A DNA stretch of 64,000 nucleotides from an uncultured Gemmatimonadales bacterium (GTDB taxonomy: Bacteria; Gemmatimonadota; Gemmatimonadetes; Gemmatimonadales; GWC2-71-9), in the NCBI GenBank assembly GCA_963723565.1, contig CAVRRH010000007.1, forward strand, positions 236,643 to 300,642, given 5' to 3'. Made by a program: the position numbers and the translations under genes. Shown piece by piece: positions 3,470 through 56,913 of the stretch. Every line of letters starts with the position of its first letter. Position 1 is the first letter of the stretch. Below the pieces are notes generated by a model, which ran no database searches, was not told where the DNA came from, and saw only the letters and a program-made list of their open reading frames with translations.

Positions 3470-3651
3470 CGAGCAAGGTAACAGGACGGCATCAGGGAGC
3501 AGCTAACCTGAGGCGCCGGAAAGGCTTAGCGCCCAGAAATAGCCGTCGCCATAAACATGCACAATCTGCAGAATTATCAGTTTGCCAGCGACGAATGACC
3601 CGCAATCCGGCATAAGTGTCCCTGATTCTCTGCATTTCTTGCAAAATTGTC

Positions 3652-3992: not shown

Positions 3993-5409
3993 GTGAAGTG
4001 CAGAAAGTGTTGCGACCTGATCAAGCAAAAGAACATTCAGGTCGTGGACGTGAAGTTCTGCGATCTGCCCGGGACCTGGCAACACTTTTCGATTCCGGCT
4101 TCCACGCTGGACGAGGCCATGGTTCGCGAAGGCCTGGGCTTCGACGGGTCCTCCATCCGCGGCTTCCAGGCAATCAACGAGAGCGACATGCTCCTGATCC
4201 CGGACGTCTCGACCGCGTTCGTGGATCCGGTCCTCTCGGTGCCGACGCTCTCGCTCATCTGCGACGTCTATGATCCGGTGACGCTCGAGCCTTATTCCCG
4301 CGACCCCCGCTTCATCGCATTCAAGGCGGAGGAATACCTGAAGACGAGCGGGATCGCGACAACCTCTTACTGGGGCCCCGAGGCCGAGTTCTTCATTTTC
4401 AACTCCGTGCGTTTCGATCAGAACGCACACGAGGGCTACTATCACATCGATTCGGACGAAGGAATCTGGAACTCCGGCGCGAACGGGGCACCAAACCTGG
4501 GTCACCGGCCGCGCCACAAAGAGGGGTACTTCCCCGTCCCACCTGTGGACCGGCTTCAGGATGTCCGCTCCAAGATCATGCTCGCCATGATCGAGGCCGG
4601 CATACCGGTCGAAGTCCAGCATCACGAGGTCGGTACCGCGGGGCAGGCGGAAATCGACTATCGCTTCGGCACACTGGTGCAGACCGCGGATCGGCTTTTG
4701 ACCTACAAGTACATCGTCAAAAACGTCTGCAACAACCTTGGCCTCACGGCGACGTTTATGCCCAAGCCGCTGTTCGGCGACAACGGCTCGGGGATGCACG
4801 TGCACCAATCGCTTTGGAAAGGTGACAGCAACCTGTTCTTCGACGAGGCAGGATACGGCCTGATTTCGGAGACGGCGCGGCGGTACATCGGCGGATTGAT
4901 CGCCCATTCACCGGCGCTGCTCGCCTTCTGTGCCCCGACCACGAACAGCTATCGGCGACTGGTGCCGGGGTTCGAGGCGCCCATCAACCTCATCTACTCC
5001 CAGCGCAACCGGTCGGCGATCTGTCGAATTCCGGTGTACTCGAGCAGCCCCAAGGCCAAGCGGATCGAATACCGCGCGCCTGACCCGACATGCCAACCCC
5101 TACCTGGCCTTCGCGGCGCTGCTCATGGCCGGGCTGGACGGGATTCGCCGGAAGATCGAGCCCCCGAAGCCGATTGACGCGGACCTCTACGAGCTGCATG
5201 GCGAGGAGAAGCAGAACATCCGGAATACGCCTGGCTCGTTGGGTGAGGTGCTGACCGCGCTGGAGCAGGATCACGACTTCCTGCTCCAGGGTGACGTCTT
5301 CACGCCGGACGTAATCGACACCTGGATCAGCATGAAGCGCTCCAAGGATTTGCCCGCGATAACGCTGCGACCGCATCCGTACGAGTTCTTCCTGTACTAC
5401 GACGCGTGA
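3993..5409 (+). CDS. glnA: glutamine synthetase type I (frameshifted as sequenced)
   Basis: N-terminal KNIQVVDVKFCDLPGTWQHF and the central and C-terminal GS-I sequence are split between ORFs 3861..5177 and 4930..5409. The frames rejoin if one C at 5093/5094 is removed (..DPTC NPYLAFAALLMAGLDGI..). GTG 3993 is the likely start; merged length is about 471 aa. Confidence 0.92.
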
Positions 5410-5410
5410 T

Positions 5411-5479
5411 GGTAGTCGTCAGTCACCAGTCGCAGTCGACTGCTCGACCATGTGACTGATGACTTGCGACTCGCGACTC
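5411..5479. repeat. inverted array of heptamer units (NNNAGTC x4 then GACTNNN x4) filling the glnA-amtB gap
   Basis: Left arm GGTAGTCGTCAGTCACCAGTCGCAGTCG (5411-5438) and right arm GTGACTGATGACTTGCGACTCGCGACTC (5452-5479). AGTC/GACT recur every 6-7 nt in mirror orientation. The array starts 2 nt after the glnA stop. Confidence 0.6.
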
Positions 5480-5508
5480 CGAGCCGTCAACCTATAAGGA
5501 GCAATGCC

Positions 5509-6850
5509 GTGACGATCTTACCCTTGCTGCTCGCCGTGCAGGACGCCGCACCTCCGCCGACCATCGTTCCGGCCGATACGGCCTGGATGCTGATCTCGAC
5601 CGCGCTGGTCCTGCTCATGACCCCCGCGCTCGCCTTCTTTTACGGTGGCCTGGTGCGCAACAAGAACTCGCTCAACACCATGATGATGAGCTTCGTGGCG
5701 CTGGGCGTCGTCGGGATAACCTGGGCCATTGCGGCGTACAGCCTCGCCTTTAGCGAGGGCGGCCCGCTGCTCGGCGGCCTGGCCAACCTCGGACTCAATG
5801 GGGTAGGCACCGAGGCCAAGGGCACCATTCCGCACGTGCTCTTCATGGCCTACCAGGCCACCTTCGCCATCATCACCGCCGCGCTCATCTCGGGCGCCGT
5901 GGTCGAGCGGATGCGGTTCGGGCCTTACGTCGTCTTTATCGCCCTTTGGACCCTGTTTGTCTACGCCCCCGTGGCCCACTGGGTCTGGGGCGGCGGCTGG
6001 CTCATGACTCGCGGCGTGCTCGACTTCGCCGGCGGCACTGTGGTGCACATCAACGCCGGTGTGTCGGCCCTGGTCGCGGCGCTGGTTTTGGGCTCCCGGA
6101 AGGACTACGGGCGCCAGGCGGTGCTGCCGCACAACGTTCCTTTCACTTTGCTGGGCGCGGGATTGCTCTGGTTTGGTTGGTTCGGCTTCAACGGGGGCAG
6201 CGCGCTCGCAGCGAACGAGCTCGCCGGCCTCGCCTTCACCAACACCTTCCTGGCCCCGATGGGAACGCTGGTGGTGTGGACGCTGCTGGACTACTTCCGG
6301 ACCGGTCGGGCCACCGCCGTCGGTGCGGCCACTGGGATCGTGGTCGGGCTGGTGGCTATCACCCCGGCGGCGGGCTTCGTAAGCCCGGCGAGCGCCCTCA
6401 TGCTTGGGCGCCGTGGCGGCATTGCCGAGCTACTTCGTCATCGCGCTCCGCTCCCGCACCCGGATCGACGACTCGCTCGACGTCTTCGCCGGCCACGGGG
6501 TAGGTGGACTCACCGGCGCGCTGCTCACCGGCGTGCTGGCGCAGAAGCTCTGGAACCCAGCAGGCAACGACGGTCTGCTGTACGGCAACCCCGGCCAGCT
6601 CGGGGTCCAGGCGCTCGGCTGCCTCAGCGCGGCTCTCTACGCCGCGATCATGACGTTCGTGATCCTGAAGGTGCTGGCTCTGGTGATGTCGCTCCGCACG
6701 GTGCCCCGCGTCGAGGGCGTCGGCATGGACCTGAGCCAGCACGGCGAGGAAGCCTACGCCAGCGGCGAAGGCTCGATCCTGGTGCATCCCGAGGCGGCGC
6801 TCGTTCCCGAGCCGCTGCCCGCGTTTACTCCACAAGTCGCGTCGAGGTAG
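5509..6850 (+). CDS. amtB: ammonium transporter (Amt family; frameshifted as sequenced)
   Basis: GTG 5509 lies 6 nt after AAGGAG. The Amt signature regions (AFFYGGLVR.., DFAGGTVVHINAG.., FGWFGFNGGSA) are in ORF 5452..6915. The C-terminal part (DDSLDVFAGHGVGGLTGALLTG) is in ORF 6404..6850. The frames rejoin by removing one G at 6406-6408. Confidence 0.9.
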
Positions 6851-6855
6851 TGGAA

Positions 6856-6956
6856 GGGCTATTGGCTATGGGCTGTGGCGCTATGGGCTGCAACGGGGAC
6901 CATGCCCATCCATAGGCGCAGCGGGTCCAAGCGGCGTAGCCCATAGCCCATAGCCC
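6856..6956. repeat. palindrome with tandem-heptamer arms (GGGCTAT-type units) between amtB and glnK
   Basis: Left arm GGGCTATTGGCTATGGGCTGTGGCGCTATGGGCTG (6856-6890); right arm GCGTAGCCCATAGCCCATAGCCC (6934-6956). The arms are near reverse complements. It starts 6 nt after the amtB stop. Confidence 0.7.
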
Positions 6957-6983
6957 TGATCATTTCTTAGGAGATCGAAGATC

Positions 6984-7346
6984 ATGAAACTGATCGTAGC
7001 CATCATCCGCCCCGACCGGCTCAACGAGGTGCTGGAGGCGCTCTACCGCACCGAGGTCCGTGGCCTCACCGTGTCGCGGGTGCTCGGGCACGGCGGCGAG
7101 ACCGAGCGGGTCGAGACCTATCGCGGCACTACAGTCAAGGTCGACCTGCAGGAGAAGGTACGCCTCGAGATCGGCGTCTCCGAGCCGTTCGTGGAGGTGA
7201 CCATCAAGGCGATCCTCGCCAGCGCCCGCACCGGTGAAGTCGGAGACGGCAAGGTCTTCGTCCTCGACGTTGCCCAGGTCTACCGGATTCGGACCGGCGA
7301 GCGGAACGAAGCCGCTGTGACGCCCGCGGTGGCGGTGGGCGCGTAA
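6984..7346 (+). CDS. glnK: nitrogen regulatory protein P-II
   Basis: Intact 120-aa ORF (MKLIVAIIRPDRLNEV..., T-loop region GHGGETERVETYRG, C-terminal GDGKVFV). It lies directly downstream of amtB, as is typical for glnK. Confidence 0.92.
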   Translation: MKLIVAIIRPDRLNEVLEALYRTEVRGLTVSRVLGHGGETERVETYRGTTVKVDLQEKVRLEIGVSEPFVEVTIKAILASARTGEVGDGKVFVLDVAQVYRIRTGERNEAAVTPAVAVGA

Positions 7347-7521
7347 GGGGACGGCGGTAAGCGCGGTACGGTTCGTAGCATTCTCGTCATCCCGAACGTA
7401 GTGAGGGATCTCAAACCTTTCGGGTCTGAGATCCTTCGCTTCGCTCAGGATGACAGCGCACACCCTGCCTCCCGTCTTTCCCGTCCTTCCCTCCTTCCGG
7501 TCCTTCCCGTCCTTCCCGTAC
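7345..7521. repeat. composite repeat: G-rich arm, GTCATCCCGAACG..CGCTCAGGATGAC core palindrome, C/T-rich tandem arm
   Basis: Core halves at 7386-7412 and 7428-7454 are inverted copies. The right arm, 7465-7521, is made of CCGTCCTTCC-like units. Translated, the core gives the SEAKDL and HPERSEGS peptides seen in spurious ORFs 6960..7523 and 7411..8481. Confidence 0.7.
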
Positions 7522-7530
7522 ATTCCACTG

Positions 7531-9212
7531 ATGGCCCAACAAACTCAGGAGCAGCGCCATCACCGAGGGCGTCCAGCGCGCCCCGAATCGCGCGATGCTC
7601 CGCGCCGTCGGCTTCGGCGACGGCGACTTCGGCAAGCCGATCGTCGGCATCGCGAATGCGCACAGCACCATCACGCCGTGCAATGCCGGACTCGACGTGC
7701 TCGCGCGTCGGGCCGAGGCCGCGGTGCGCGAGGCCGGCGGCGCATGCCGCAGATCTTCGGCACGATCACCGTGAGCGACGGCATCTCGATGGGCACCGAG
7801 GGGATGAAGTACTCGCTGGTGTCCCGCGAGGTCATCGCGGACTCCATCGAGACGGCCTGCGGGGCGCAGAGCATGGACGGCGTGCTCGCCGTCGGCGGCT
7901 GCGACAAGAACATGCCCGGTGCCATGATCGCGATCGCGCGGATGAACATCCCGGCGGTCTTCGTCTACGGCGGCACGATCAAGCCGGGCCACTACGACGG
8001 GCGCGACCTCACGGTCGTGAGCGTCTTCGAGGCGGTGGGCCAGCACAGCGCCGGCAAGATCGATGACGGCGGAGCTGCTCGAGGTCGAGCGCAGGGCCTG
8101 CCCCGGGCAGGGCTCGTGCGGCGGCATGTTCACCGCCAACACGATGTCGTCGGTGTTCGAGGCGATGGGGATGAGCCTGCCCGTATCCTCCACCATGGCC
8201 GCCGAGGACGCGGAGAAGGCCGAGAGCGCGGCGCAGTCGGCGCAGGCGCTGGTCGAGGCGATGCGCCGCGGAATCTTGCCGCGCCAGATCCTGACGCGCA
8301 AGGCGTTCGAGAACGGGATCGCGGTGGCCATGGCGCTCGGCGGCTCGACCAATGCGGTGCTGCACCTGCTCGCGATCGCGCACGCCGCGGGCGTGCCGCT
8401 CGAGCTCGACGATTTCGAGACGATTCGCGCCCGCGTGCCGGTGCTCTGCGACCTCAAGCCATCGGGGCGGTACGTCGCCACCGATCTGCACCGCGGCGGG
8501 CGGCGTCCCCCAGGTCATGAAGATGCTGCTGGACGCACGGGCTGCTGCACGGCGACGCGCTCACCGTCACCGGGGAGACCGTCGCGGAGGAGCTGCCGGA
8601 CGTGCCCGCCGAGCCCCGGCCGGATCAGGACGTGATCCGGCCCTGGGAGCGGCCGCTGTATGCCCAGGGCCACCTCGCGATCCTGCGCGGCAACCTGGCG
8701 CCCGAGGGCGCGGTCGCAAAGATCACCGGCGTGAAGAGCCCGGCGATGACCGGCCCGGCCCGCGTCTTCGACTCGGAAGAGAGCCTGCCTCGACGCCATC
8801 CTCGCCGGCCGCATCCGCGCCGGCGACGTCATCGTGATCCGCTACGAGGGGCCGAAGGGCGGGCCGGGCATGCGCGAGATGCTCGCGCCGACCTCGGCGA
8901 TCATCGGCGCCGGACTGGGCGACTCGGTCGGCCTGATCACCGACGGCCGCTTCTCGGGCGGCACCTACGGCATGGTCGTGGGGCACGTTGCGCCCGAGGC
9001 GGCGGTGGGCGGACCGATCGCGCTGGTGCGAGGAGGGCGACCGCATCACGATCGACGCGGAGCGGCGCCTGCTGCAGCTGGACGTCCCGGACGACGGAGC
9101 TGGCCCGGCGGCGCGCCGCGTGGAAAGCCCCGAAGCCCCGCGCTACACCGCGGGCGTGCTTCACAAGTACGCCAAGCTGGTCTCCAGCGCGAGTCTGGGC
9201 GCCGTCACCGAC

Positions 9213-9218
<6 letters not shown>
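7531..9218 (+). CDS. ilvD: dihydroxy-acid dehydratase (about 9 frameshifts as sequenced)
   Basis: Highly conserved IlvD sequence can be followed through all three frames:
- [28 protein letters not shown]
- [30 protein letters not shown]
- [25 protein letters not shown]
- [13 protein letters not shown]
- [15 protein letters not shown]
- [22 protein letters not shown]
- [12 protein letters not shown]
- [24 protein letters not shown]
The first shift is an extra G at 7534, right after the ATG. Confidence 0.9.
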
Positions 9219-10303
<1,085 letters not shown>

Positions 10304-10307
<4 letters not shown>

Positions 10308-10914
10308 GACTTCGCTCCGCTCGGGCAAGGCGGCTGGCGCTCGAAGGCGGCGATGCGGCGGTTCGTCCAGCAGCGTTTGTCCGATCTCATCCAGGCCGCG
10401 CAGCAGCATCTCCCGCCGGTACTCCTCGACCTGAACTGGCCCGGAAGCCTCCGCCATCGCTCACCGCTCGCTGCGTCCAGGTCGATAGTCATTTCGTAGC
10501 CCCGCGTTGCGGCGCAGCGCTCGAAACAGCTCGGCCACCTCTGACCTCGGTCAGGACCACCGGCAGCAACCCGTTCTGGCAACAGTTGGCGTAGAAGATG
10601 TCGGCGAAGGACGGCGCGATGATGGCGCGGAAACCGAAATCCGCGAGCGCCCAGGGCGCGTGCTCGCGGGATGAGCCGCAACCAAAGTTCGCGCCGGTGA
10701 GCAGAATCGTTGCGCCCTGCGACTCGGCTCGATTCAGCTCGAACTCGGGGTTCAGAGTACCGTCGCTTCGATACCGCCAATCGTGGAACAGAAACGCTCC
10801 GAAGCCGGTGCGCTCGATCCGCTTCAGGAACTGCTTCGGAATGATCTGGTCGGTGTCGACGTTGGCTCGTCGAAGCGCGGCGACTCGTCCAGTGTGCGAA
10901 ACAAAGGGCTGCAT
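10304..10914 (-). CDS. leuD: 3-isopropylmalate dehydratase small subunit (about 3 frameshifts as sequenced)
   Basis: [39 protein letters not shown].. is in ORF 10489..10926. The continuation (..[11 protein letters not shown].., ..[21 protein letters not shown].., ..IAAFERQ..) lies in two other frames. Confidence 0.88.
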
Positions 10915-11016
10915 ATGCTCCCTCATTGTTATGCATGCGCGGAGGAGAGCGACGACGAAAGCAACTTTAAGTGGTCGTCTATAACCTTATGTGTTGCTGG
11001 GTGTTACAGAGCACGA

Positions 11017-12490
11017 CTAAGGTACCATCTCAGTATGCATAGCGGTGTCAAACGCTTCAGCCTGAGCTGTTGAGCTGCTCATAAACGCTCGCACGTCTAC
11101 CAGACATCCGGCAATCGCCGCTGCAGCCGCCATCGCAGGACTCATCAAGTGCGTGCGTCCTCCCCTTCCCTGCCGACCCTCGAAGTTCCGGTTCGATGTG
11201 GAGGCGCAGCGCTCACCCGGACCGAGCACATCCTCGTTCATCCCCAGGCACATCGAGCATCCGGGATTGCGCCATTCAAACCCTGCTTCGGTGAAGACGC
11301 GGTCCAATCCTTCGCGCTCAGCTGCAGCCTTGACCTGGCGCGAGCCAGGCACGACCATCGCTCGCACCCCGCTCGCCACTCTTCGTCCTCGCGCGACCTG
11401 AGCGGCCTCGCGCAGGTCCTCGATTCGCGCATTGGTGCATGAGCCGAGAAATACCCGATCTACCTTGAGCCCCTCGAGCGGAGTCCCGGGCCGAAGGTCC
11501 ATGTACTCCAGCGCCCGTCGCCACGAGTGACGGTCGGCCTCCGACTTGGCCTCGTCGGGGTCCGGAACCCATCCTGTAATATCGGTCGTCATTCCAGGGC
11601 TGGTGCCCCAGGTGACCTGAGGCTGCACGGCGCTCGCATCGAGCGTGACGTGTTGGTCGAAGTAGGCGTCCGGGTCGCTCCGTAGCGCGCTCCAGGCACT
11701 CACCGGCACGCTGCCATTCCCTGCCCGCTGGAGCCTCGCGCCGCCCCGCCAGGTAAGCCAGCGTCTTGCCGTCCGGCGCGATCATGCCGGCCCGGGCCCC
11801 AGCCTCAATGGACATGTTGCAGACCGTCATGCGGCCTTCCATCGACATCGCGCGGATGGCCTGGCCGGTGTACTCGATCACGTGTCCCGAGGCGCCCGCG
11901 GTGCCGATCTGGCGAATCAAAGCCAGGATCAGATCCTTGGGCGACACGCCGAGTTGAGGAAGTTCAGAGAAACAAACCTCCATAGTGCGCGGAGGGGTCT
12001 GCACCACACACTGCGTGGCAAGCACGTGCTCGACCTCACTCGTTCCGATACCGAACGCAAGTGCCCCGAACGCCCCGTGGGTCGAGGTGTGGGAGTCGCC
12101 GCAGACGATGGTCATGCCCGGCTGGGTGAGCCCCAGCTCCGGGCCGATCACGTGGACGATTCCCTGCTCGGGCGAATCGAGGTTGAAGAGCCGGATCCCG
12201 AACTCACGGGCGTTCCGTACCAGCGCCGCCACCTGCCGTGCCGACAGCTCGTCCGCGATTGGCAGCCGCCGGTCGCCGGTCGAAACGTTGTGGTCCACGG
12301 TGGCGACGGTGAGCTCGGGGCGACGAACGCGCCGGCCGCTCAAACGCAGCCCCTCGAATGCCTGGGGTGAAGTGACTTCGTGCACCAGGTGCAGGTCCAC
12401 GTAGAGCAGCGCCGGTCCCCCTGGGACCTGGCTGACGACGTGCGCATCCCAGACTTTCTCGAAGAGCGTGCGAGCAGTCATCGTTGCCAT
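11017..12490 (-). CDS. leuC: 3-isopropylmalate dehydratase large subunit (one frameshift near 11710-11740)
   Basis: The N-terminal 260 aa ([19 protein letters not shown].., [26 protein letters not shown]) are in ORF 11318..12652. The C-terminal part (..[12 protein letters not shown].., [18 protein letters not shown]) is in ORF 11017..11709. Confidence 0.9.
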
Positions 12491-12685
12491 AGCCAAGGGG
12501 AGCCGCAGGTGAACGCAAGAACAGATCGGATCGTTCCACTGCCGATAACAGCTTCCCCGTGCCTGGACAGGGGCCTTGGTGTTGTTATTCAACTGCACAC
12601 CTCCGAGTCCAGGCCAGTAAACGGAGACTTTGGTGAACGAGGGGCGATCCATCCTGTTCCTGTGTTCCTTCCGCGGCTTCTTTTC

Positions 12686-13801
12686 TTATCGAGGGAGCGG
12701 GTGAGCTGGGCGGCGCGGGCGCCGCTCCGATTTCGCCTTGCTATCGGCAGTCCTCTCGCTGCCCTGCTGTCCCGCTGTCCCGCTGTCCCGCTTCTTCCCC
12801 TCCTCCGACCACGGCATCATCGCCCGCAGCTCGGCGCCCACTCGCTCGATCTCATGGTCCTTGTCCGCCTGGCGGGCCCGCTCGAAGTTGGGGCGCCCCG
12901 CCCGGTTCTCCTCCAGCCATTCCCGGGCGAACGACCCGTCCTGGATGGCCTCCAGGATCCGCTGCATCTCGGCTCGGGTCTCATCGGTGATGACCCGGGG
13001 ACCCCGCGTGTAGTCACCGTACTCCGCCGTATCGCTGATCGAGTAGCGCATGAAGCCGAGCCCGCCGCGATACATCAGGTCAACGATGAGCTTGAGCTCG
13101 TGCAGACACTCGAAGTAGGCCATCTCCGGCCGGTACCCCGCCTTGGTCAGGGTCTCGAAGCCGGCCTTGACCAGGGCGGTCACACCGCCGCACAGCACCG
13201 CTTGCTCCCCGAAGAGATCGGTCTCGGTCTCCTCCCGGAACGAGGTCTCGATGACACCCGCGCGGGTGCAGCCGATTCCCGAGGCATAAGCGAGCGCGTT
13301 GGCGAGCGCCTGCCCGCTCGCGTCCTGATGCACCGCCACCAGCCCGGGTACGCCCCGGCCGGCCTCGAACTCGCTCCGCACCAGGTGGCCGGGCGACTTC
13401 GGCGCCACCATGGTGACGTCGACTCCCGCGGGGGGCACGATCTCGCCGTAGTGAATGTTGAAGCCGTGGGCGAACATCAGCGTGTTGCCCGGACGGAGGC
13501 CCTGGGCCACGCCTGCCTCGTATATGGCACGGCCATCCTGATCCGGCACCAGCATCATGATGACGTCGGCTTGCTCCGCGGCTTCGGCCACCGGGCGTAC
13601 ATCGAGCCCCGCAGCCTGAGCCCGGTCCCATGACGCGCCCCCGCGGCGCAGACCCACGATCACCTTGGCACCGCTCTCCCGGAGGTTGAGGGCGTGAGCG
13701 TGCCCCTGGCTGCCGTAGCCGATGATGGCAATGGTCCGGCCGGCCAGGAGGCTGGGGTCGGCGTCGGCATTGTAGTACACCCGCACCGGTGCGTTCGTCA
13801 T
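12686..13801 (-). CDS. ilvC: ketol-acid reductoisomerase (class I) with about 38-aa repeat-encoded C-terminal tail
   Basis: Intact ORF with [21 protein letters not shown] Rossmann motif and the KARI core up to ..ELRAMMPW. The last ~38 codons run through the tandem octamer array at 12759-12800. Confidence 0.92.
12759..12800. repeat. single-arm tandem octamer array (CTGTCCCG x3-4) at the 3' end of the ilvC ORF
   Basis: CTGCCCTG CTGTCCCG CTGTCCCG CTGTCCCG CTTCTTCCCC, read directly from the sequence. Confidence 0.7.
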
Positions 13802-14304
13802 GTCACTGTCTCTGATTGAAGGTTGTTCGCCGTGCCGAGCGCGATCGTGCCGCTGCGGGCCACCTCGACCACGTCGAATCGCTCGAGGGCGCGGAGGCAG
13901 GAGAGAACGAAGGCTTCGGACCCGCTGAGCTCGACGATCAGGCCGTCGGTGGAGTCATCCAGCACCGTGGCGTTGTAGAGCTGGACCACATCCAGCAGCT
14001 CGGCGTAGCGATGATGCGGAGCCCGAACCTTCACCAGGGCGAGCTCGCGGGTCACCCCGTCCAGGGTAGGAAACGCGATGGCGGCGCGGACGCCGATCAT
14101 CTTCTGCAGATGCTGCACGGCTCGCTCCGCGGTGGCAATGTCCGACTGCATCATGATAGTCAACCTCGAAAGGCCGGGGGTACCTGTGGGGCCGATGGCC
14201 AGGCTGCGTACGGGCAGATTGCGCCGCCGGATGAGTCCGACCGCGCGGTTCAGAGTGATCAATCGGTCCTCCAGCAGGACCGACACCGCTTGGGCTTCGC
14301 TCAT
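13798..14304 (-). CDS. ilvN: acetolactate synthase small (regulatory) subunit
   Basis: Intact 168-aa ORF with an ACT-domain-like N-terminus ([32 protein letters not shown]). ATGA-type overlaps with ilvB and ilvC. Confidence 0.88.
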
Positions 14305-16020
14305 GCGGGGACCAGGGGCGTTGCCGCGACCCCCTCGATGGGCTCCGAAAGCGACCCACCGGGCGGAATCATGGGAAACACATTTGCCTCCTGTTCGATC
14401 ATGAATTCCACCAGGACCGGGCCAGGCTCGGCCGCGGCCTCGGCGACGGTGCGTTTCAGCTGATCGGTCGACTCGACCCGGTGTCCGGCGATCCCATAGG
14501 CCTCGGCGAGCTTGACGTAGTTCGGACTCCAGATCGGCGTGGCCGAATAGCGCTTACCGTGAAAGAACTGTTGCCACTGCCGCACCATCCCCAGGTACCC
14601 GTTGTTGAAGACCGCCATCTTCACCGGGATTCCCTCCTGCACCATGGTGGCGATCTCTTGCATGTTCATCTGGAATCCTCCGTCGCCCGAGATTGCCCAG
14701 ACCGGCTCACCCGGACGAGCCAGAGCGACGCCCATCGCCGCCGGTACCGCAAAGCCCATCGTTCCCAGTCCGCCGGAAGTGATGTGGCTGTTGGGCCGCT
14801 GATACCGAAACAGCTTGGCGACCCACATCTGATGCTGGCCGACATCGGACACGATGGTGGAGCGGCCGTCACTGGCGTCGCTGATGGCGTCCAGGATTGC
14901 CTGGGGCGAGAGGCCGGCGCGGAAGCTCTCCTCCCGAGGGCGCACAAAACTGGCAATCTCGCGCCGCCACGCGTCGCAGTTGCGGGGCGCTACCGCGGGA
15001 AGCAGGGAGCAGAGCACTTCCCGCGCGTCGCCTATGAGTCCCACGACCGCCGGCACGTTCTTCCCGATTTCCGAGGCATCGAGCTCGACGTGAATGAGCT
15101 TTGCCCCCCGGGCGAAGCCGGCGAGGTTTCCGGTTACCCGGTCGTCAAACCTGAGACCCAGGCCGATGATGAGGTCGGACTGCTGGATGGCCCGGTTGAC
15201 GTGAACCTCGCCATGCATGCCGGGCATTCCCAGGTGGAGCGGGTGCGACTCGGGAAAGGCACTGATGCCGAGCAGGGTGGTGATCACCGGAATGCCGGTG
15301 CGCTCCGCCAGCACCCGGAGCTCGTGATACGCGCCGGAGAGCACCACCCCGTGACCGGCCATGATGAGGGGCCGCTCGGCGGCGGCGATGAGCCGGGCAG
15401 CCTCGGCGAGAGCGGCGGTAAGGCGGTAGGGCGGTAGGGCGGTAGAGCGAGAACCTACCGCCTTTCCGACCTTCCGCCTTTCCGCCTTGCCACTCCGCCT
15501 TCTGATTCTGCACATCCTTGGGAATATCCAGCAGCACCGGTCCGGGTCTCCCTTCCTGGGCAACATGGAAGGCCTCGCGTACCGCGTCCTGAATCTCCTC
15601 GACGTCCTCGATCAGGCGACTGTGCTTGGTGATCGGCTGAGTGATCCCGATGATGTCGGTTTCCTGGAAGGCGTCCCGCCCCATCATCGCGCGGGCTACC
15701 TGGCCGGTGATCGCCACCACCGGCGTGCTGTCCATGTTGGCCGTGGCGAGCCCGGTGACGAGGTTGGTCGCTCCCGGACCCGAGGTGGCCACGCACACGC
15801 CGGCGCGGCCGGACGCGCGGGCGTACCCGTCCGCCGCGTGCGCCGCCGCTTGCTCGTGCCGTACGAGCACGTGCCGGAGCCCCGGGAACTCGGGCAGCGC
15901 GTGGTAGAATGGCATGATGGCGCCACCCGGGTAACCGAAGAGGACGTCGACACCCTCGTCGAGCAGGGCACGGCAGAGGATCTGTGAGCCGGTCAGGATT
16001 CCGTCATGGACGTGCCCCAT
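14301..16020 (-). CDS. ilvB: acetolactate synthase large subunit (one net frameshift inside an intragenic repeat)
   Basis: The N-terminal Pyr domain ([50 protein letters not shown]) is in ORF 15145..16068. The central and PP domains (..[29 protein letters not shown]..) are in ORF 14301..15566. The frames switch within 15414-15502. Confidence 0.9.
15414..15502. repeat. imperfect hairpin of GGCGGTAG-type octamer repeats inside the ilvB coding sequence
   Basis: GGCGGTAAGGCGGTAGGGCGGTAGGGCGGTAG (15414-15445), a 9-nt loop, then CTACCGCCTTTCCGACCTTCCGCCTTTCCGCC... (15455-15502). It is translated as ..[20 protein letters not shown].. in the linker after DIPKDVQ. Confidence 0.75.
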
Positions 16021-16077
16021 GCGCCAGGCGTAAGTCGCCAGTTCGAAGCGGAGGACGGCCCCGATCACGACCCAAGA

Positions 16078-16103
16078 CTGCTGACCGCTGACCGCTCACG
16101 ACT
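16078..16103. repeat. single-arm tandem heptamer array (GCTGACC/GCTCACG) in the leuA-ilvB spacer
   Basis: CTGCTGACCGCTGACCGCTCACGAC. The minus-strand reading GTGAGCGGTCAGCGGTCAGC is related to the GGTGAGC units at 47127. Confidence 0.55.
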
Positions 16104-16111
16104 TTCGACCA

Positions 16112-17668
16112 TCACACCCCCCACAGGTACACCGAGTTCAGCGAGCTCGCCTCCAGCTTGTCGGCGTGCCGCGCCTTGTTCAGAGCGTGCACCAGTGCCC
16201 GCGCGCTGGCCTCCACGATATCGGTCGAAGCGCTGTGTCCGGTCAGCGACTTGCCGTCGATCTTGGCCTGCAGAAAGACCTGGCCTACGCTGTCCCGCCC
16301 TGGAGTGACCGATCGCAGTGAAAGGCTCAGCACCTCGAGGTGCCGCTCCAGGATCTCGCTCACCGCCGCGAACGCCGCCGCTATCGGACCGTCTCCGGTA
16401 CCGCGCGCCGAGCGTTCGCCGGTCCACGGTCCCGTCATCCGGACCTCCGCCGTTGCCGTCACGCTGCCGCAGACGACCCGGAGGTGGGTGAGCTGATACT
16501 CCTCGGGCGCGTCGTGAAAGCTCTCGTGCAGCAGGGCCAGCAGGTCCTCGTCCAGGATCTCGCGCTTGCGCTCGGCGAGCGCGGTGAAGCCCTGGTACAG
16601 GGCGGCCAGCTCCTCCTCGCTGAGCTGATAACCCAGCTCCTGGCAGCGGCGCTCCAGCGCGTGCCGGCCGGAGTGTTTCCCCAGGACGAGCGTCGAGCGC
16701 GGAATGCCGACCATCTCGGGCCGGATGATCTCGTAGGTGAGCCCGTTCTGCAGCATCCCATGCTGGTGGATACCGGCCTCGTGAGCGAACGCGTTGCGTC
16801 CCACAATGGCCTTGTTCGGCTGGGGAAAGACCCCGGTGAGGTAGGAGAGGAGCTGGCTGGTGCGATAGATCTCGCGCGACTCTACCTTGCACTGGAACGC
16901 CACCGCGGCTCCGCGCACCCGGCTCGCCATCACAATCTCCTCGAGGGCCGCGTTCCCGGCGCGCTCGCCGATCCCGTTGACGGTGCACTCGACCTGTGCC
17001 GCTCCGGCCGCGATGGCGGCCAGTGTGTTCGCCACGGCCAGGCCAAGGTCGTCGTGGCAGTGAGCGCTGAGGATCACCCCATCGCTCCCTGGCACCCGTT
17101 GGCGCACGTCCCGGAACATCGCGGCATACTCGGCCGGCATCGCGTAGCCGACGGTATCCGGCAGGTTGATGGTCGTGGCTCCCTCTTCTATAGCGGCTTC
17201 CACCACCCGGCAGAGAAAGTCGGGGTCGGTGCGGCTGGCATCTTCGGCGGAGAACTCCACGTCGTCGGTGTACTGGCGAGCCCGGCGGACCGCATCGCGC
17301 GCCATGGCGAGAACCCCCTCGCGCGTAGTACGCAGCTTTTCCCGGATGTGAAGATCGGAGGTGGAGACGAATACATGGAGCCGGCCGCGGGCCGCTTCGC
17401 TGATCGCCTCGCCGGCCAGCTCGATGTCCCGTTCCAGACAGCGTGCGAGCGCCGCGATGACCGGGCTCCGGACCTCGGTCGCAATGTCTCGCACGCTCCG
17501 GTAGTCGCCCTCGGACGCGGCCGGGAAGCCGGCTTCGATGATGTCGACGCCGAGCGCGTCGAGCTGGCGAGCAAGGCGGAGCTTCTCTTCGGGCGAGAGA
17601 CTGTTGCCGGGCGCCTGCTCACCGTCGCGCAGCGTGGTATCGAAGATCAAGACTTCCGGGATTGCCAT
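16112..17668 (-). CDS. leuA: 2-isopropylmalate synthase
   Basis: Intact 518-aa ORF with [30 protein letters not shown] and a C-terminal LeuA dimerisation/regulatory domain. Confidence 0.93.
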
Positions 17669-17691
17669 ACGTCGCTTTCGGGCTGAAGGGT

Positions 17692-17726
17692 AAAGAAAAG
17701 CGCCGCGAACTCTTGGTCCGCGGCGC
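17692..17726 (-). terminator. intrinsic terminator (attenuator) 24 nt upstream of the leuA start
   Basis: On the minus-strand RNA: GCGCCGCGGA, loop CCAAGAG, UUCGCGGCGC, then UUUUCUUU. This is a 10-bp stem including one G-U pair. The left arm has an alternative perfect 10-bp partner, GUCCGCGGCG, at 17775-17784. Confidence 0.7.
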
Positions 17727-17754
17727 CGGTTGCAATCAGTGGAGACTTACCGTC

Positions 17755-17850
17755 TCATGTTGCTCGTCTAGGCACGCCGCGGACCCCTCGCTCACCGATG
17801 AGGACGGTAAGCAGGACGCTAAGGAGGACGACGACGAGGACGAGCTGCAT
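17755..17850 (-). CDS. putative branched-chain amino acid operon leader peptide (31 aa, MQLVLVVVLLSVLLTVLIGERGVRGVPRRAT)
   Basis: ATG at 17850, TGA at 17757-17755. Fourteen of residues 3-18 are Leu, Val or Ile. The ORF ends 29 nt before the terminator stem, and its codons 22-25 form the antiterminator strand. Confidence 0.6.
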   Translation of the reverse strand: MQLVLVVVLLSVLLTVLIGERGVRGVPRRAT

Positions 17851-17914
17851 GTGCTTGAGCCGTGTATCGAGTGTTGGTGACCAGGCCGGAACTTTATGCT
17901 TCGGCCGGATCATC

Positions 17915-17943
17915 AGGCTACGCCATTACGAAGGCACTGTCAA
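17915..17943 (-). promoter_or_regulatory. sigma70-type promoter TTGACA-N17-TAGCCT for the leader-leuA operon
   Basis: On the minus strand, TTGACA (17943-17938), a 17-nt spacer, then TAGCCT (17920-17915). It lies about 60 nt upstream of the leader ATG. Confidence 0.45.
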
Positions 17944-18005
17944 GAGCAAGCCAAGTACCCGAGGCAACAATTTTGTAACCAGCGACATTGGCGTAGGATT
18001 CCGTC

Positions 18006-18034
18006 TTGACGGATTCACCCCAATGCATAATAAT
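18006..18034 (+). promoter_or_regulatory. sigma70-type promoter TTGACG-N17-AATAAT upstream of the gltB leader
   Basis: TTGACG at 18006-18011, a 17-nt spacer, then AATAAT at 18029-18034. It is in the only AT-rich patch of the leuA-gltB divergent region. Confidence 0.45.
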
Positions 18035-18138
18035 GCGGTATGAATCTGCATCGCGCCCGGGTAACCCTTATCGTGAATCTCAATCTCGTCCGCTCCAGGG
18101 GAGCGCCCGGGTGAGCTTAGCGTCTTCACGTTAACCCC

Positions 18139-18170
18139 GGCCTGCTCCCAAGTGGAGCGGGCCTTTTTTA
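18139..18170 (+). terminator. intrinsic terminator within the gltB leader, 55 nt upstream of the gltB ATG
   Basis: GGCCTGCTCC (18139-18148), loop CAAGT, GGAGCGGGCC (18154-18163), then TTTTTTA. This is a 10-bp stem with one G-U pair. Confidence 0.65.
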
Positions 18171-18224
18171 TGGCCTCGAGTACGGCCTCTCCGGCCGCTG
18201 GGGCACGACAACTCAGGAGACACC

Positions 18225-21200
18225 ATGGCCGCCAATGGGCAGCGGATCCACCCGGCCGGTTCCCGTCAGCACCACCGACGACACGCCGCCACTCGTGCAA
18301 CAACCTCCCTCGATTCCACCCGTGAGCATGATGCGTGCGGCGTAGGCTTCGTAGCCGCGGCATCCGGCGTTCGCAGCCATGAGGTAATCGCCATGGCCGT
18401 CGAGGCGGCGGCCCGTGTGGCGCACCGGGGCGCGGCCTCGACTGACCTGTCAGGCGATGGCGCGGGCCTTCTGACCCAGATCCCTCACCGATTGTTCTAC
18501 CGGGACTCCTACCGGCTGGGACTTCACCTGCAGCCCGGGCTCCCCTTTGGCGTGGGAGCCTTTTTCCTGCCGCCGTCCGGAGAGGCACTGGCTGCCTCGG
18601 TCAAGATGGTCGAGACGGTGCTGGCCGGGGACGGCATTCCGATCCTGGGCTGGCGCGACGTGCCGACGAATCCCGCTGCACTGGGCCCCACCGCGCAGGC
18701 GTCGTGTCCAGTCATCCGGCAGGTCCTGGTGGGCCGGCCGGCGCTCACGACCGACGAGGACGCCTGGGAGCGAGCCCTCTATCTGGCCCGGCGCGAGATG
18801 GAGCGGCGAGCGGAAGAGGCCAGGTTCCCCGGCTTCTACGCCTGCTCGATGTCCTGCCGCACCATCGTGTACAAGGCGTTGCTCACCGGAACCCAGCTCC
18901 CGGCGTTCTTCACCGATTTCCGGTATCCGGAATACGAGAGCGCGATCGCCGTCTTCCACCAGCGCTACTCGACCAACACCCTGCCCAGCTGGCCCCTGGC
19001 ACAGCCGTTCCGCCTCCTGGCCCATAACGGAGAGATCAACACGTTGTGGGGCAACCGGAACGCCATGACGATGCGGCAGCCGATGCTCGCCTCGCCGATA
19101 TGGGGAGAGAAGATCGAGCGGCTCAGGGAAGTCATCTGGCGGGAGGGCAGCGACTCGGCGAGCCTCGACAACGCGATGGAGCTGCTGGTTCGTTCCGGCC
19201 GTGATGTGATACACGCGTCGATGATGACGATCCCACAGGCGTGGGAGAAATACTCCGACCTCGATCCCGGGGTGAAAGCGTTCTACGAGTATCACCAGTG
19301 CATACTGGAACCGTGGGACGGTCCGGCCGCTCTCGCCTTCACCGACGGCGTGCTGGCGGGCGCCGCGGTGGATCGCAACGGGCTCAGGCCCTGCCGGTAC
19401 AAGGTGCGGGCGGACGGCCTGGTGGTGGCCGGCTCCGAGGTTGGCCTGGTGGACCTGGATCCGCGCGAGGTGGTGGAGTGCGGGAAGGTCGGCCCCGGTG
19501 AGGTCCTGGTGGTGGATACCCGTCGAGGAGAAGTGATTCGCAACCTCGACGCAAAGCGGGAGGTGGCGGCTCGCCGCCCGTACGCGCGCTGGGTCGCCCG
19601 CTACATGGCGACCCTGGTTCCCGACCCCGCGAGAGTTCCCCCCACCCACAGCGGCGAATCATTGCTGCGACTGCAGCGGGCGTTCGGCTACGGTGCCGAG
19701 GACTTGCGGATCGTGCTCGAGCCAATGGGCAGCACCGGCGGCGACCCGGTCTGGAGCATGGGTGACGATACTCCGATCCCGCCGCTCTCCGCCGTGCCCC
19801 AGAGTCTCTACGCCTATTTCCGGCAGCGGTTCGCTCAGGTCACGAATCCGCCGATCGATTCACTGCGCGAGTCCATGGTGATGTCGCTCAGGATGCACCT
19901 GGGCCGGCGCGGCTCGCCCTTGCTCGAGCGAGCCTCGTACGCCCGGATGCTGCGGCTGGAGCACCCGATCCTGCTGGCAGAGGAGATGGCGGCCCTTCGG
20001 AATGTCGCCGGGTTCTCGACCGTTACCCTGGATGCCGTATGGAATCCGGCGAAGGGAACCGGCGGACTCAAGTCCGCCCTCACCGCGCTCCGCCGTGCCG
20101 CGGAGCGCGCCGCGCGTCGGGGAGCACACATCCTCATCATCAGCGATCGCGCCGCCACTGACCGCCACGCACCCATCCCCATGCTCCTGGCCATCGGGGC
20201 GGTGCGCCAGCATCTGGTCCACGTCGGCCTGAGGGCCCGGGTGGGCATCGTGGCCGAGGCGGGCGACGCATTCGATATCCACCACTTCGCCACCCTCATC
20301 GGTTACGGTGCGGAGGCGGTGCATCCCTGGCTGGCCCTGGAGAGCGTTGACGAGATTTTCAGCGAGGTAGGGGCGACGCGATGCGTCGCCCGCGGAACCA
20401 GCGTCCCTCCCCGTTGAGGCAAGACATCAGTACCGCACGGCGGCCGAGAAGGGACTGCTCAAGATCCTCTCGAAGATGGGGATCTCCACCCTCTCCTCCT
20501 ACTGCGGTGCCCAGATCTTCGAGGCGCTCGGGCTCGGCAACGAGGTGATCACATCCTGCTTTGCCGGTACCGCCTCGCCACTCGGCGGGATCGGCTTCGA
20601 GGAGCTGGCCGAAGACGTCATGGCAGCGGCATGGGTCGGCGTACCAGGCCGTGGAGGCTGCTTCGCTACCGGATCACGGGCGAGTGCGCTTTCGCAAGGA
20701 GGGCGAGGATCACGGCTGGGCACCCCAGATCGTGATGGCACTGCAGCAGGCAACGGGAAGTGGGAGGAAGGCGGGCGGACGGGCGGAAGGGCGGAGGGCG
20801 GACAGACGGAAGGGACGGTGAGCGGCTATCAAAACTTTCTCGCGAAGAACGGAGCTCGACGTCCGGCGGGGCCGCGTGATCTGCTGGCCGTGAAGCGTGG
20901 TGACCCGATTCCGCTGGAGCAAGTCGAGCCAGCCGAAGACATCCGCCGCCGATTCGTGTCCTCCGCCATGTCCCTCGGCGCTCTCTCGCCGGAGGCGCAT
21001 GCCACGCTGTCCATCGCCATGAACCGGATGGGCGCGCGGTCGAACTCGGGAGAGGGCGGTGAGGATCCCGCGAACTACCACGGGCTCGGCAATGGCGACC
21101 GGGCCGACAATCGGGTGAAGCAGGTGGCATCCGCCCGATTCGGCGTGACCACCGAGTACCTCACTCGGGCGGAGGAGCTGGAGATCAAGATCGTCCAGGG

Positions 21201-22897
21201 CGCCAAGCCAGGTGAGGGCGGACAGCTTCCGGCCCACAAGGTCACCGACCTCATTGCCCGGCTGCGGCATGCCGTGCCCGGGATTCAGCTCATCTCGCCG
21301 CCGCCGCACCACGACATCTATTCGATCGAGGACCTGGCCCAGCTGATCCACGATCTCAAGACCGTCAATCCCCGCGCCCGAGTCGGGGTGAAGCTGGTTT
21401 CCGAAACCGGTGTGGGGACGGTGGCAGCCGGAGTGGCCAAGGCCTACGCCGACTACGTGCTGATCGCGGGGCACAACGGCGGCACCGGCGCATCGCCGCT
21501 CTCATCCATCAAGCACGCGGGCTCGCCCTGGGAGCTGGGACTGGCCGAGGCGCAGGCTACCCTGGTGCGAAACGGGTTGCGCCATCGAATCGAGGTCCGC
21601 ACCGATGGAGGACTGAAGACCGGACGGGACGTTGTCATCGCCGCTCTGCTTGGAGCGGAGAGCTACGGCTTCGGCACCGCGCCGCTGGTGGCCATGGGAT
21701 GCGACATGGCCCGGCAGTGCCACATCAACACCTGCCCGACCGGCATCGCCACCCAGCGCGAGGATCTCCGGGCCAAGTTTCGCGGGACGCCGGAGCAGGT
21801 GATCTCCTATTTCACCTTGATCGCCGAGGAGGTGCGGGGCATTCTGGCGGGTCTCGGTGTCCGCACCCTGGATGAGATTATTGGGCGCAACGATCTCCTC
21901 GAGCGAGTCGAGTGCCCCGACGTGCCGCGGGCGCAGATGCTGGATCTGTCGGTGCTGCTGGCGGGACAGCGGGACGGGCGGACAGAAGGGCAAAACGTAG
22001 CGCTGCGCCGCACAGTGGAGCGCAACGATCGGCCCGGCCTGGTGTCTCTCGACAACGAGATCCTGGCCGATCTGAAGCCGTATCTGGACTGCGCGCTTCC
22101 CTTCTCCGGCAACTACCAGATCCGCAACCACCATCTCACGGTGGGCGCGCGAGTGGCAGGCGCCATCGCGGAGCAACACGGGGATGAAGGCCTACCGCCT
22201 GGATCGGTTCGTCTTCGCTTTACCGGTACCGCGGGCCAGAGCTTCGGGGCGTTCCTCTGCCGCGGCGTGCATCTCGAGCTCGAAGGCGAGGCCAACGATT
22301 ACGTCGGCAAGGGACTGAGCGGAGGCGAGATCACCATCCGGCCGTTCCGCCGTGCCGGCTACGCCGACGTGTCGCACCAGCATCTGATAATCGGCAACAC
22401 CGTTCTCTACGGTGCCACTGCCGGGAAGCTGTTTGCCGCCGGCCAGGCGGGCGATCGCTTCGCGGTCAGAAACTCCGGCGCGGTAGCGGTGATCGAGGGA
22501 GCGGGCAACCACTGTTGCGAGTACATGACCGGCGGGATCGTCGTCGGTGCTCGGCCGTGCCGGCCGAAACTTTGCTGCCGGCATGTCGAATGGGGTGGCA
22601 TACGTCATGGACGAAGCCGGCACGTTCGCCAGCCGGCTGAACGGCGATCATGGTGGAGCTGGAGTGACCTGGATGACGAAGATGTCGAGCTGCTGCGGAA
22701 GCCTGATCCGGGAGCACGAGGAGAAGACGGTGAGCGCCAGGGCACGGAATATCCTGGTGCGGTGGGAGGAATACCTGCCACTGTTCCGAAAGGTCATGCC
22801 GAAGAGTGCGGCGCTCCAAGTCGCCGTCATTAGGGCGGCCTATCTGAGCTCGCCCCCCGCCGAGGCCGAGCTTTGGTTGGCACGCAGAACTGCCTGA
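18225..22897 (+). CDS. gltB: glutamate synthase large subunit (at least 7 frameshifts as sequenced)
   Basis: Conserved GltB blocks can be followed across frames:
- The amidotransferase Cys (HDACGVGFVA) and N-terminal domain, in ORF 18225..20417.
- [24 protein letters not shown] and the FMN domain (MSLGALSPEAH, SNSGEGGEDP, KIVQGAKPGEGGQLP, GHNGGTGASP), in ORF 20476..22833.
- The C-terminal GXGXG domain, ending in ORF 22547..22897.
Resolved shifts are at about 20390, about 20620, within 20755-20818, about 22540, and at 22649, 22665 and 22699. Confidence 0.92.
20755..20818. repeat. single-arm tandem 7-8-mer array (GGGCGGAN units) inside the gltB coding sequence
   Basis: GGGAAGTGGGAGGAAGGCGGGCGGACGGGCGGAAGGGCGGAGGGCGGACAGACGGAAGGGACGG. 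It sits between the conserved ALQQA.GSG and SGYQNFLAKNG..RDLL blocks. The reading frame changes across it. Confidence 0.7.
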
Positions 22898-23057
22898 GCC
22901 CTCAACCGCGCTGGCGGCGTGCCCTAAGCGTTCCGGGTAGGGCACGCGGGCGCATTCTGCAGTCGCAGGCCAAAATACAGGAGTTTCTGGCCCTTCACCT
23001 GTGTGGTCCGGCTCCCCAACTGTAAAGCTTTCAGCCACTTCCCACATACCGAAAATT

Positions 23058-26888: not shown

Positions 26889-26911
26889 AGGGCGTTCGAA
26901 GGGCCGTCCTG

Positions 26912-27064
26912 GGTAATCCCGAGCGGAGCGAGGGACCGGTCCGGCGTACGTTTGCAAGCGAATTCCCGTTTGCCGACGTTAACCCAGCCGATTTCTCGCT
27001 CCGCTCGAAATGACCGCGCGATTGGCTTCCCTACGCTATCCCTACCGCCGTACCGCCGTACCGC
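26912..27064. repeat. core palindrome (GGTAATCCCGAGCGGAGCGAGGGACC ... ATTTCTCGCTCCGCTCGAAATGACC) plus a CCGTACCG tandem arm
   Basis: Inverted halves lie at 26912-26937 and 26991-27015. The tandem array CCCTACGCTATCCCTACCGCCGTACCGCCGTACCGC lies at 27029-27064. Confidence 0.65.
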
Positions 27065-37639: not shown

Positions 37640-37808
37640 GAGATGAGAAGTGAGAAGTGAGAAGTGAGAAGTTTAATGTGAAGCCTTGATTGTCACCCCG
37701 AGCGGACGCGAGGGGGCCTGAGCTGTGTAGAGCTTCGGCCCCTTCGCTGCGCTCAGGGTGACACGCCCTCTCACTTCTCACTTCTCACTTCTCACTTCTC
37801 ACTTCTTA
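37621..37808. repeat. exemplar composite palindrome: (GTGAGAA)n arm, GTCACCCCGAGCG..CGCTCAGGGTGAC core, (TTCTCAC)n arm
   Basis: The left arm, 37621-37671, has 7 heptads; the inner 3-4 are exact AGTGAGA. Core halves are at 37692-37718 and 37737-37762. The right arm, 37768-37808, has TCACTTC x5. It occupies the whole gap between the convergent gltA and speA genes, and both stop codons fall in the arms. Confidence 0.85.
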
Positions 37809-54490: not shown

Positions 54491-54557
54491 TGGAGAGAAC
54501 CTTCGTTATTGAGAGATCCCTCGCTGCGCTCGGGATGGCCTCACGCTTCGCGTGAGG

Positions 54558-56662: not shown

Positions 56663-56683
56663 ACAAGATACTCAAAGCCCTGA

Positions 56684-56913
56684 CCACGGATGAACACGGA
56701 AAAGCACGGATCACTCCGCTGTGTCGAGACCTTCCTTATCCTCACCAATCCAAGGCAATCTGTTTGACACCACACCCACGGGGTTCATGTGAGGACAAGG
56801 AGAATGTCGAATTCGCCAGGTGTGCCGTTGCACAAGTATGAACTGCACCCGGTGACGCGAACGGAGCGCCTCGATTCCCGGAACAATCCGTGCTTTTCCG
56901 TGTTCATCCGTGG
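56684..56913. repeat. 230-bp MITE-like element with perfect 28-bp terminal inverted repeats
   Basis: CCACGGATGAACACGGAAAAGCACGGAT (56684-56711) is the exact reverse complement of ATCCGTGCTTTTCCGTGTTCATCCGTGG (56886-56913). Each TIR is itself three CACGGA units at 10-nt spacing. No obvious target-site duplication. Confidence 0.7.

Follow-up and report, generated by a model that had tools for sequence, protein, structure and literature searches.

Introduction

Hairpins built from repeats are usually seen as intergenic or mobile. In Xanthomonas, arrays of the heptamer GGGAATC occur as convergent pairs, use one unit genome-wide and lie between genes (Rehm et al. 2015, PMC4692102), and long simple sequence repeats (SSRs) of 5-11 nt have been treated more generally (Mrazek 2007, as cited in PMC4692102 and PMC4679880). 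Rickettsia palindromic elements (RPEs) form families of ~150 bp in which both the sequence and the peptide it encodes are conserved, and the host protein gains a segment through them (PMC10969869). Repetitive extragenic palindromes (REPs) and bacterial interspersed mosaic elements (BIMEs) are abundant, GC-rich hairpins that lie where genes end or where operons meet, and a role in termination or in the stabilisation of mRNA has been proposed for them (PMC3733652, PMC12306157). Here we analyse a hairpin of tandem octamers inside ilvB, the gene for the large subunit of acetolactate synthase (acetohydroxyacid synthase, AHAS), on 64,000 nt of DNA from an uncultured Gemmatimonadales bacterium (assembly GCA_963723565.1, contig CAVRRH010000007.1, positions 236,643 to 300,642; the whole stretch is called the window below). 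In this case a repeat hairpin forms the interdomain connector of an essential enzyme, and does so across a bacterial order.

Two further kinds of repeat occur within genes. Vioque, in 1997, reportedly described short tandemly repeated repetitive (STRR) heptamers inside the cyanobacterial RNase P RNA gene, where they vary between strains and sit in a helix or linker that tolerates them; the host there is an RNA gene and not an open reading frame (ORF). Borg repeats are of the direct kind and leave the reading frame intact. According to passages of PMC9879509, Borg tandem repeats within ORFs evolve fast and yield low-complexity, disordered segments. The ilvB repeat resembles them in generating a protein segment that is predicted to be disordered, but its 8-nt unit uses all three frames (giving an 8-aa periodicity) and its arrays come as inverted, base-pairing pairs.

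The closest structural match to the ilvB hairpin is the convergent heptamer-array pairs of Xanthomonas together with the long SSRs of 5-11 nt. The likeness lies in two convergent arrays of the 7-nt class that are G-rich, abundant, capable of forming a stem-loop and conserved in position between related species. There is no dominant genome-wide unit and the location is not intergenic; instead nearly every element has its own unit, the period within ORFs is 8 and several copies are translated. With RPEs (PMC10969869) the ilvB hairpin shares the presence of a hairpin repeat within ORFs of unrelated metabolic genes, in frame and at positions where the fold tolerates it. Unlike RPEs it has no family consensus, consists of tandem 8-mers specific to site and species, changes the net length by ~6 aa and is inherited in place. 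It also differs from REPs, which have a genome-wide consensus and are extragenic. The ilvB element therefore combines known kinds of repeat in a new form, set apart by its unit diversity, its 8-nt period and its location in an ORF. In the literature that we searched, neither octamer hairpin arrays nor a Gemmatimonadota class of this kind had been described; only analogues turned up, which is not proof of absence.

Results

The hairpin is translated as part of IlvB

Genes in the window were called by Pfam searches on stop-to-stop ORFs, as a frame plot of G+C content at third codon positions (GC3) was too noisy. The merged ilvB product matched solved AHAS structures over its full length (residues 9-564), with E = 1e-139 for Arabidopsis AHAS and 2e-131 for E. 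coli AHAS I, and its orthologues carry PF02776, PF00205 and PF02775. The closest proteins are intact acetolactate synthase large subunits of Gemmatimonadales with 83-94% identity. Their lengths are 560-592 aa, except for two calls, one shortened at its N terminus (546 aa) and one extended (609 aa). By sequence, then, the window ilvB is a biosynthetic AHAS large subunit (IlvB/IlvI/IlvG) with the three domains of a thiamine diphosphate (ThDP) enzyme.

Tandem Repeats Finder (TRF) reported two arrays of period 8 in the hairpin, one at 15414-15449 (4.5 copies, 92% matches, consensus GGCGGTAG) and one at 15458-15488 (3.9 copies, CCGCCTTT). The inverted arms, at 15414-15445 and 15455-15486, are 32 nt each, 84% complementary and 9 nt apart. 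Folding the coding (minus) strand gave -61 kcal/mol with a z-score of -4.6, a value that 0 of 200 shuffles matched. In the window the unit of the 5' arm is GGCGGAAA/G, which leaves one A-A mismatch per unit against the 3' arm. The perfect complement of the 3' unit CTACCGCC is GGCGGTAG, which bears a TAG and would place a stop in every frame within three units; we infer that the 5' arm has the mismatched unit because of this.

A preliminary description of this DNA, made from the letters of the window, had reported an octamer-array hairpin with a 9-nt loop in the connector after the Pyr (TPP_enzyme_N) domain, through which both flanking frames pass without a stop, and TRF, arm pairing, folding and the orthologues bear this out. 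It had the repeat following the DIPKDVQ block directly; in fact six codons (NQKAEW) lie between them. The N-terminal part of ilvB is read from the ORF 15145-16068 and the C-terminal part from the ORF 14301-15566, which overlap only across the repeat; the third frame contains a stop.

We compared the locus with 80 species-level ilvB loci from the Gemmatimonadales genomes of GTDB and with the 120 closest database proteins. The linker was in frame and free of stops in 80/80 loci, with every length a multiple of 3, where about one third would be expected by chance, and the linkers of the 120 proteins likewise read in frame. Because the 80 loci all keep the frame without stops, the hairpin is translated conventionally, with the ribosome reading straight through it. 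The protein alignment was nearly invariant outside the linker, and the region from DIPKDVQ to EAARLIA was hypervariable and reads as translated octamer repeats (e.g. GGRADGRTGG...PPYRRTAAL; AEWRGGRADGRTGG..PPYRRTAAL; GSWAGGQQGSKSTPA..APPPRCPA; GTGERGNEGTGERGNEGTGERG). The product is of low complexity, Gly/Arg/Ala/Lys-rich at first and then Pro/Tyr/Arg/Thr/Ala-rich. The peptide of the window 3' arm also occurs in frame in the proteins P0089, P0066, P0121 and P0005.

The hairpin forms the connector between two domains

The hairpin spans from just after a conserved Trp codon to a point immediately ahead of the first central-domain helix, and its 5' boundary is fixed directly after the Trp codon across loci. 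It therefore forms the connector and does not add to one. The preliminary description had led us to expect 20-25 lineage-specific residues, and the alignment contradicts this: the span from DIPKDVQ to RPLIMAG was 61.5 +/- 5.2 aa in loci with a tandem hairpin vs 55.8 +/- 3.0 aa in those without, i.e. a difference of only ~6 aa, and a HMMER alignment placed only 6 gap positions in Arabidopsis AHAS opposite the window linker. In all likelihood the hairpin takes up exactly that stretch between the Pyr (alpha) and central (beta) domains which is under no constraint.

Stop trinucleotides were present in 5 of 61 linker arrays vs 14 of 36 arrays in the spacer between leuA and ilvB (p = 4e-4), a mark left by coding. 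Selection keeps the frame, the freedom from stops and the rough length of the linker, and not its amino-acid sequence. The AlphaFold2 (AF2) model of the close homologue P0001 shows residues 175-194 as coil with a predicted local distance difference test (pLDDT) score below 50, which hints that the linker may be disordered.

One locus, L046 (GZL_HY_2_bin.118, 3493-3570), is without the whole linker and the helix that follows it, which makes it shorter by ~30 aa; either a deletion mediated by the hairpin or a collapse in the assembly could account for this.

Units turn over while position and period persist

A clear tandem hairpin was present in the linker of ~25-30 of the 80 species, in each with a species-specific unit (e.g. 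GGCGGACG/CCGCCGTA, GGGGCAGC/GCTGCCCC, GGCGGACC/GGTCCGCC, CGGTCGGA, GATGGACC and CAGGTGTC). The period was 8 in 57/61 linker arrays; repeats elsewhere in ilvB had period 9. Species with a hairpin were spread over the whole IlvB tree, including deep branches, with degenerate or one-armed versions between them. The two arms match one another better within species than between species: comparing the 5' unit with the reverse-complemented 3' unit gave 1.72 mismatches per 8 within species vs 2.52 between (permutation p = 0.0005). The linker hairpin is old and inherited in place; across the order it has kept its position and its period of 8 nt, with turnover of the unit and co-variation of the arms. 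What is conserved is thus the nucleotide architecture (position, 8-nt period and pairing of the arms), and not the sequence or the peptide.

The frameshift in ilvB is probably an assembly error

In the window the linker is 175 nt long (1 mod 3), in contrast to its nearest relatives, in which 174 nt encode 58 aa of nearly identical peptide. Removing one base restores 174 nt and 58 aa, the linker length of P0121, P0124, L001 and L005. As the reference for indels we used the closest intact relative, L081, a syntenic contig of 44.6 kb that carries P0121 and in which all genes are intact. Over ilvB the window and L081 are 90% identical in nucleotides, and the 9-nt loop of the window is one base too long (~15448); the window there reads GGTAGGTTCTCGCTCTACC vs GGTAGGTCCTT-CTCTACC in the intact relative. 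The single net frameshift that the preliminary description had located within the repeat is thus present, but it is accompanied by a second indel, the loss of one base from TCC CTG at codon 5 (~15997), through which the conserved start ATG ACG GAA TCC runs into TGA. The two indels compensate, so that the conserved start and the C-terminal part share one frame.

About 40 single-base indels, mostly extra bases, separate the core genes of the window from those of L081 (Table 1), and, independently, Pfam domains fall into two neighbouring frames in glnA, amtB, leuC, gltB (twice) and an acyl-CoA dehydrogenase gene (25030-27010). The pattern looks like that of an unpolished long-read assembly. Since ~40 similar indels break core genes that are intact in L081, the ilvB frameshift is most likely an error in the assembled sequence, and not a property of the repeat; the split gene that the preliminary description had allowed for is disfavoured on the same grounds. 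Hairpins of this kind trouble assembly and annotation, and frameshifts within them need to be checked against overall assembly quality before they are read as biology.

The hairpin belongs to a wider class

Across 610 kb (the window plus the loci), the histogram of tandem-repeat periods peaked at 8 (101 arrays) and 7 (64 arrays), neither of which is a multiple of 3, and 126 distinct canonical units occurred among 233 arrays. There were 42 inverted array pairs, mostly with periods of 7 or 8 nt (one pair had 9 and two had 10). A member of the class consists of a pair of arrays in inverted orientation, built of 7-8-nt units, and its G-rich arm comes 5', whichever the strand; the G-rich arm came first in 38/42 pairs (binomial p = 6e-8), and we found no explanation for this polarity in the 42 pairs. 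The window itself holds ~15 such tandem 7-8-mer hairpin elements. The GGCGGTAG-type unit was found at 5-6 sites of the window, and 16-mers of this type numbered 15 in the window vs 1.1 expected.

Two elements lie at landmarks of the same operon. In many species the leuA-ilvB spacer (~2840-2996 in the loci) has a hairpin of heptamer arrays at a conserved position, of period 7 in 32/36 arrays and with a different unit in each (among them GTGAACA, GTGAGCG, GGCTATC and AAGAGAG). A stop trinucleotide, TGA for the most part, is present in many of the heptamers, and the 14 arrays counted above have one on the sense strand. The 3' end of ilvC is the third syntenic site of the operon, again conserved in position and with turnover of units. 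In many species (loci L001-L045, ~6200-6340) an octamer hairpin encodes the IlvC tail that follows MMPWSEEGK and that ends in ..RRPAAPLPR*; the stop codon stands directly after the 3' arm or, in other species, in the loop, and the ORF seems to have taken up part of a 3'-end hairpin. Elsewhere in the window, a hairpin in a DUF2339 membrane protein is translated between a coiled-coil-like N-terminal segment and the first transmembrane helix (..AGKQGGGEAGKEAG..SPLPRLPASAL..), and octamer arrays lie in the linker after the central domain of gltB. The gltB of L081 has 47 nt more of GGAAGCGG-type array at the position of a frameshift in the window gltB.

Coming from the same genome did not make the units of the ilvB linker and the ilvC tail more similar than coming from different genomes (p = 0.63), which argues against a unit shared through a trans-acting template or ectopic conversion. 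A Rfam scan at the gathering threshold gave 0 matches in the whole window, and a scan for consensus intrinsic terminators called none of the tandem-repeat elements. A G-quadruplex would fit units such as GGGGCAGC and GGGCGGTA but not AGTGAGA or GTGAACA, and was discarded as a general explanation.

Discussion

We favour the view that the ilvB segment is a resident copy of a Gemmatimonadales class of tandem-repeat hairpins, translated, old and tolerated as a passenger in an unconstrained linker, and that its frameshift is an assembly indel; we put the probability of this reading at roughly 70%. Under this reading, replication slippage would gain, lose and homogenise units within each arm, and the complementarity of the arms would be kept by intrastrand template switching (quasipalindrome correction), by selection on the stem, or by both. 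The inverted repeat could plausibly have been seeded by the codons of an ancestral W-x-G-G (GGCGG, the Gly-Gly after Trp) and P-P (CCGCC, the Pro-Pro before the helix); Arabidopsis AHAS also has KPP at the Pro-Pro position before the helix. The linker would then be a clean case from nature in which the dynamics of a DNA or RNA repeat drive how a stretch of protein evolves, with frame and stops as the only filter.

A selected nucleic-acid element in the ORF is the main rival, one that we consider less likely but take seriously. Here the stem would serve mRNA decay or processing, ribosome pausing at the domain boundary or termination upon stalled translation, with the peptide as a by-product. 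The co-variation of the arms and the strong fold are both as such an element would have them, as are the sister elements at operon landmarks (the leuA-ilvB spacer and the ilvC 3' end), which keep their position while units turn over, and the G-first polarity is left unexplained by neutrality. Yet one or both arms have been lost in many lineages with the gene unchanged, complementarity is often just 80-85% with a systematic mismatch in each unit, the window has no Rfam match, codons for branched-chain amino acids are not enriched (so that there is no hint of attenuation), and template switching can keep the arms matched without selection. A self-maintaining, tolerated passenger is most likely in our ranking, although the data do not separate it from a selected RNA or DNA stem, and an RNA-level function of the ilvB hairpin may exist. 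A broader proposal, which we regard as doubtful, is that hairpins conserved in position and turning over in sequence (7 nt in spacers, 8 nt in ORFs, G-rich arm 5') form an undescribed Gemmatimonadales class with selected stems, of which the copies in ilvB, ilvC, gltB and the DUF2339 gene are dual-coded. If it is true, a dual-coded stem would combine processing or stability of the operon mRNA, or transcription-translation coupling, with a disordered protein linker. The three syntenic sites in one operon offer a tractable system in which to separate selection on the stem from self-maintenance by template switching.

The remaining explanations fare much worse. The preliminary description had compared the segment with RPE insertions, and an in-frame insertion of a mobile palindrome of the RPE type or of the MITE type (miniature transposable elements with inverted repeats) would account for a palindrome translated within an ORF, which is what the hairpin in effect is; the recurrence of the GGCGGTAG-type unit in the window and the five copies of a separate REP-like core (see below) also point that way. 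Such an insertion is nonetheless very unlikely, as there is no consensus shared among the many units, no peptide conserved among copies and, with orthologues differing by so few residues, no empty site to set beside a filled one; we saw neither insertion polymorphism nor target-site duplication, no flanking direct repeat is visible in the window sequence, and the period is site-specific and inherited. We give equally little credence to a real frameshift, whether in a pseudogene or in a phase-variable (contingency) gene switched by the copy number of the octamer. Each 8-nt unit gained or lost would indeed shift the frame of the ORF, and the window linker is out of frame; but the shift is a single loop base and not one unit, a compensating indel stands at codon 5, comparable indels abound in genes that are intact in the syntenic L081, and none of the 80 species is out of frame. 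The last observation also disposes of a contingency locus, for which toggling of copy number with common OFF alleles would be expected. Translational bypass or recoding, with ribosomes skipping the hairpin or shifting inside it in the manner of T4 gene 60 or of mitochondrial byp elements, is the least credible of all: a stable stem-loop does lie inside the ORF with both flanking frames open across it, but a skipped segment needs neither frame nor freedom from stops, and the 80 orthologues keep both, with lengths that are multiples of 3.

Several points weigh against the passenger reading. The arms co-vary as would equally be expected from selection on an RNA or DNA stem, and both the status of passenger and the mechanism of slippage and template switching are what we infer for the hairpin, and not what we observed. 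One or both arms are degenerate in the remaining species of the 80, i.e. upkeep of the hairpin is not universal. The AF2 model of P0001 is a shallow one, with a mean pLDDT of 68 and further loops of low confidence. Lastly, a real insertion in the loop is conceivable in this strain, the call of an artefact having been made on assembled sequence.

Other features of the window

Table 1. Positions of the ilvB hairpin, of related elements and of indels in the window
Feature	Position (nt)	Strand	Basis or remark
ilvB, acetolactate synthase large subunit	14301..16007	-	PDB AHAS matches, orthologues, nucleotide alignment to L081
ilvB conserved start ATG	16007-16005	-	
Octamer-array hairpin inside ilvB	15414-15502	-	TRF, inverted-repeat search, folding
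5' (G-rich) mRNA arm, GGCGGAGTGGCAAGGCGGAAAGGCGGAAGGTCGGAAAGGCGGTAG	15455..15502	-	8-nt period from TRF 15458-15488
9-nt loop with extra frame-shifting base	15446..15454	-	Arm pairing, comparison with intact relative
3' (C-rich) mRNA arm, (CTACCGCC)x3 then CTTACCGCC	15414..15445	-	TRF, arm pairing
Second ilvB indel, codon 5	15994..16000	-	Alignment to L081
Heptamer array GTCAGCG x3 (mRNA strand), leuA-ilvB spacer	16076..16096	-	TRF
Octamer array (GGGACAGC)n, translated IlvC C-terminal tail	12757..12792 (region 12686-12800)	-	
Octamer arrays in gltB, linker after central domain	20372-20420, 20772-20814	+	
Hairpin in DUF2339 membrane protein, N-terminal linker	58630-58830	-	-120.6 kcal/mol, GGAAGCGG/CCGCTTCC arrays
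Element filling amtB-glnK spacer	6856-6956		
Element between convergent gltA and speA	37628-37806		
REP-like core CTTCGCTNCGCTCAGGRTGAC	7434-7454(+), 26913-26933(-), 37742-37762(+), 54519-54539(+), 62893-62913(-)		
ilvD			8 indels vs L081
leuB			11 indels vs L081
leuD			5 indels vs L081
gltB			9 indels vs L081, 5 of them one base
leuC			1 indel vs L081
amtB			1 indel vs L081
glnA			1 indel vs L081
Single-base indels, window 4000-23000	e.g. 5091, 6406, 11697, 20625, 22543-22702, 7740-9136, 9279-10031, 10359-10542		

Apart from the tandem arrays, the window contains a REP-like palindromic core, CTTCGCTNCGCTCAGGRTGAC, in 5 copies vs 0 expected. At 7340-7540 and at 37628-37806 this core occupies the loop of a tandem-repeat hairpin, giving a composite of array, core and array. 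The ilvB hairpin is without the core, and where the core matched within the ilvB gene of some loci, the match was to GVILS codons and not to a repeat.

Inverted arrays of a 10-mer (TGAACACGGA / ATCCGTGCTC) occur at 56681-56912 in the window, at 5817-5983 in L007 and at ~4700 in L008. Their unit is shared by different genomes at different loci and is conserved in sequence, unlike the 7-8-mer elements. In the gap between leuA and gltB, two terminator-like hairpins with T-runs stand back to back, at 17699-17727 (minus strand) and 18139-18163 (plus strand), and are different in kind from the tandem-repeat hairpins.

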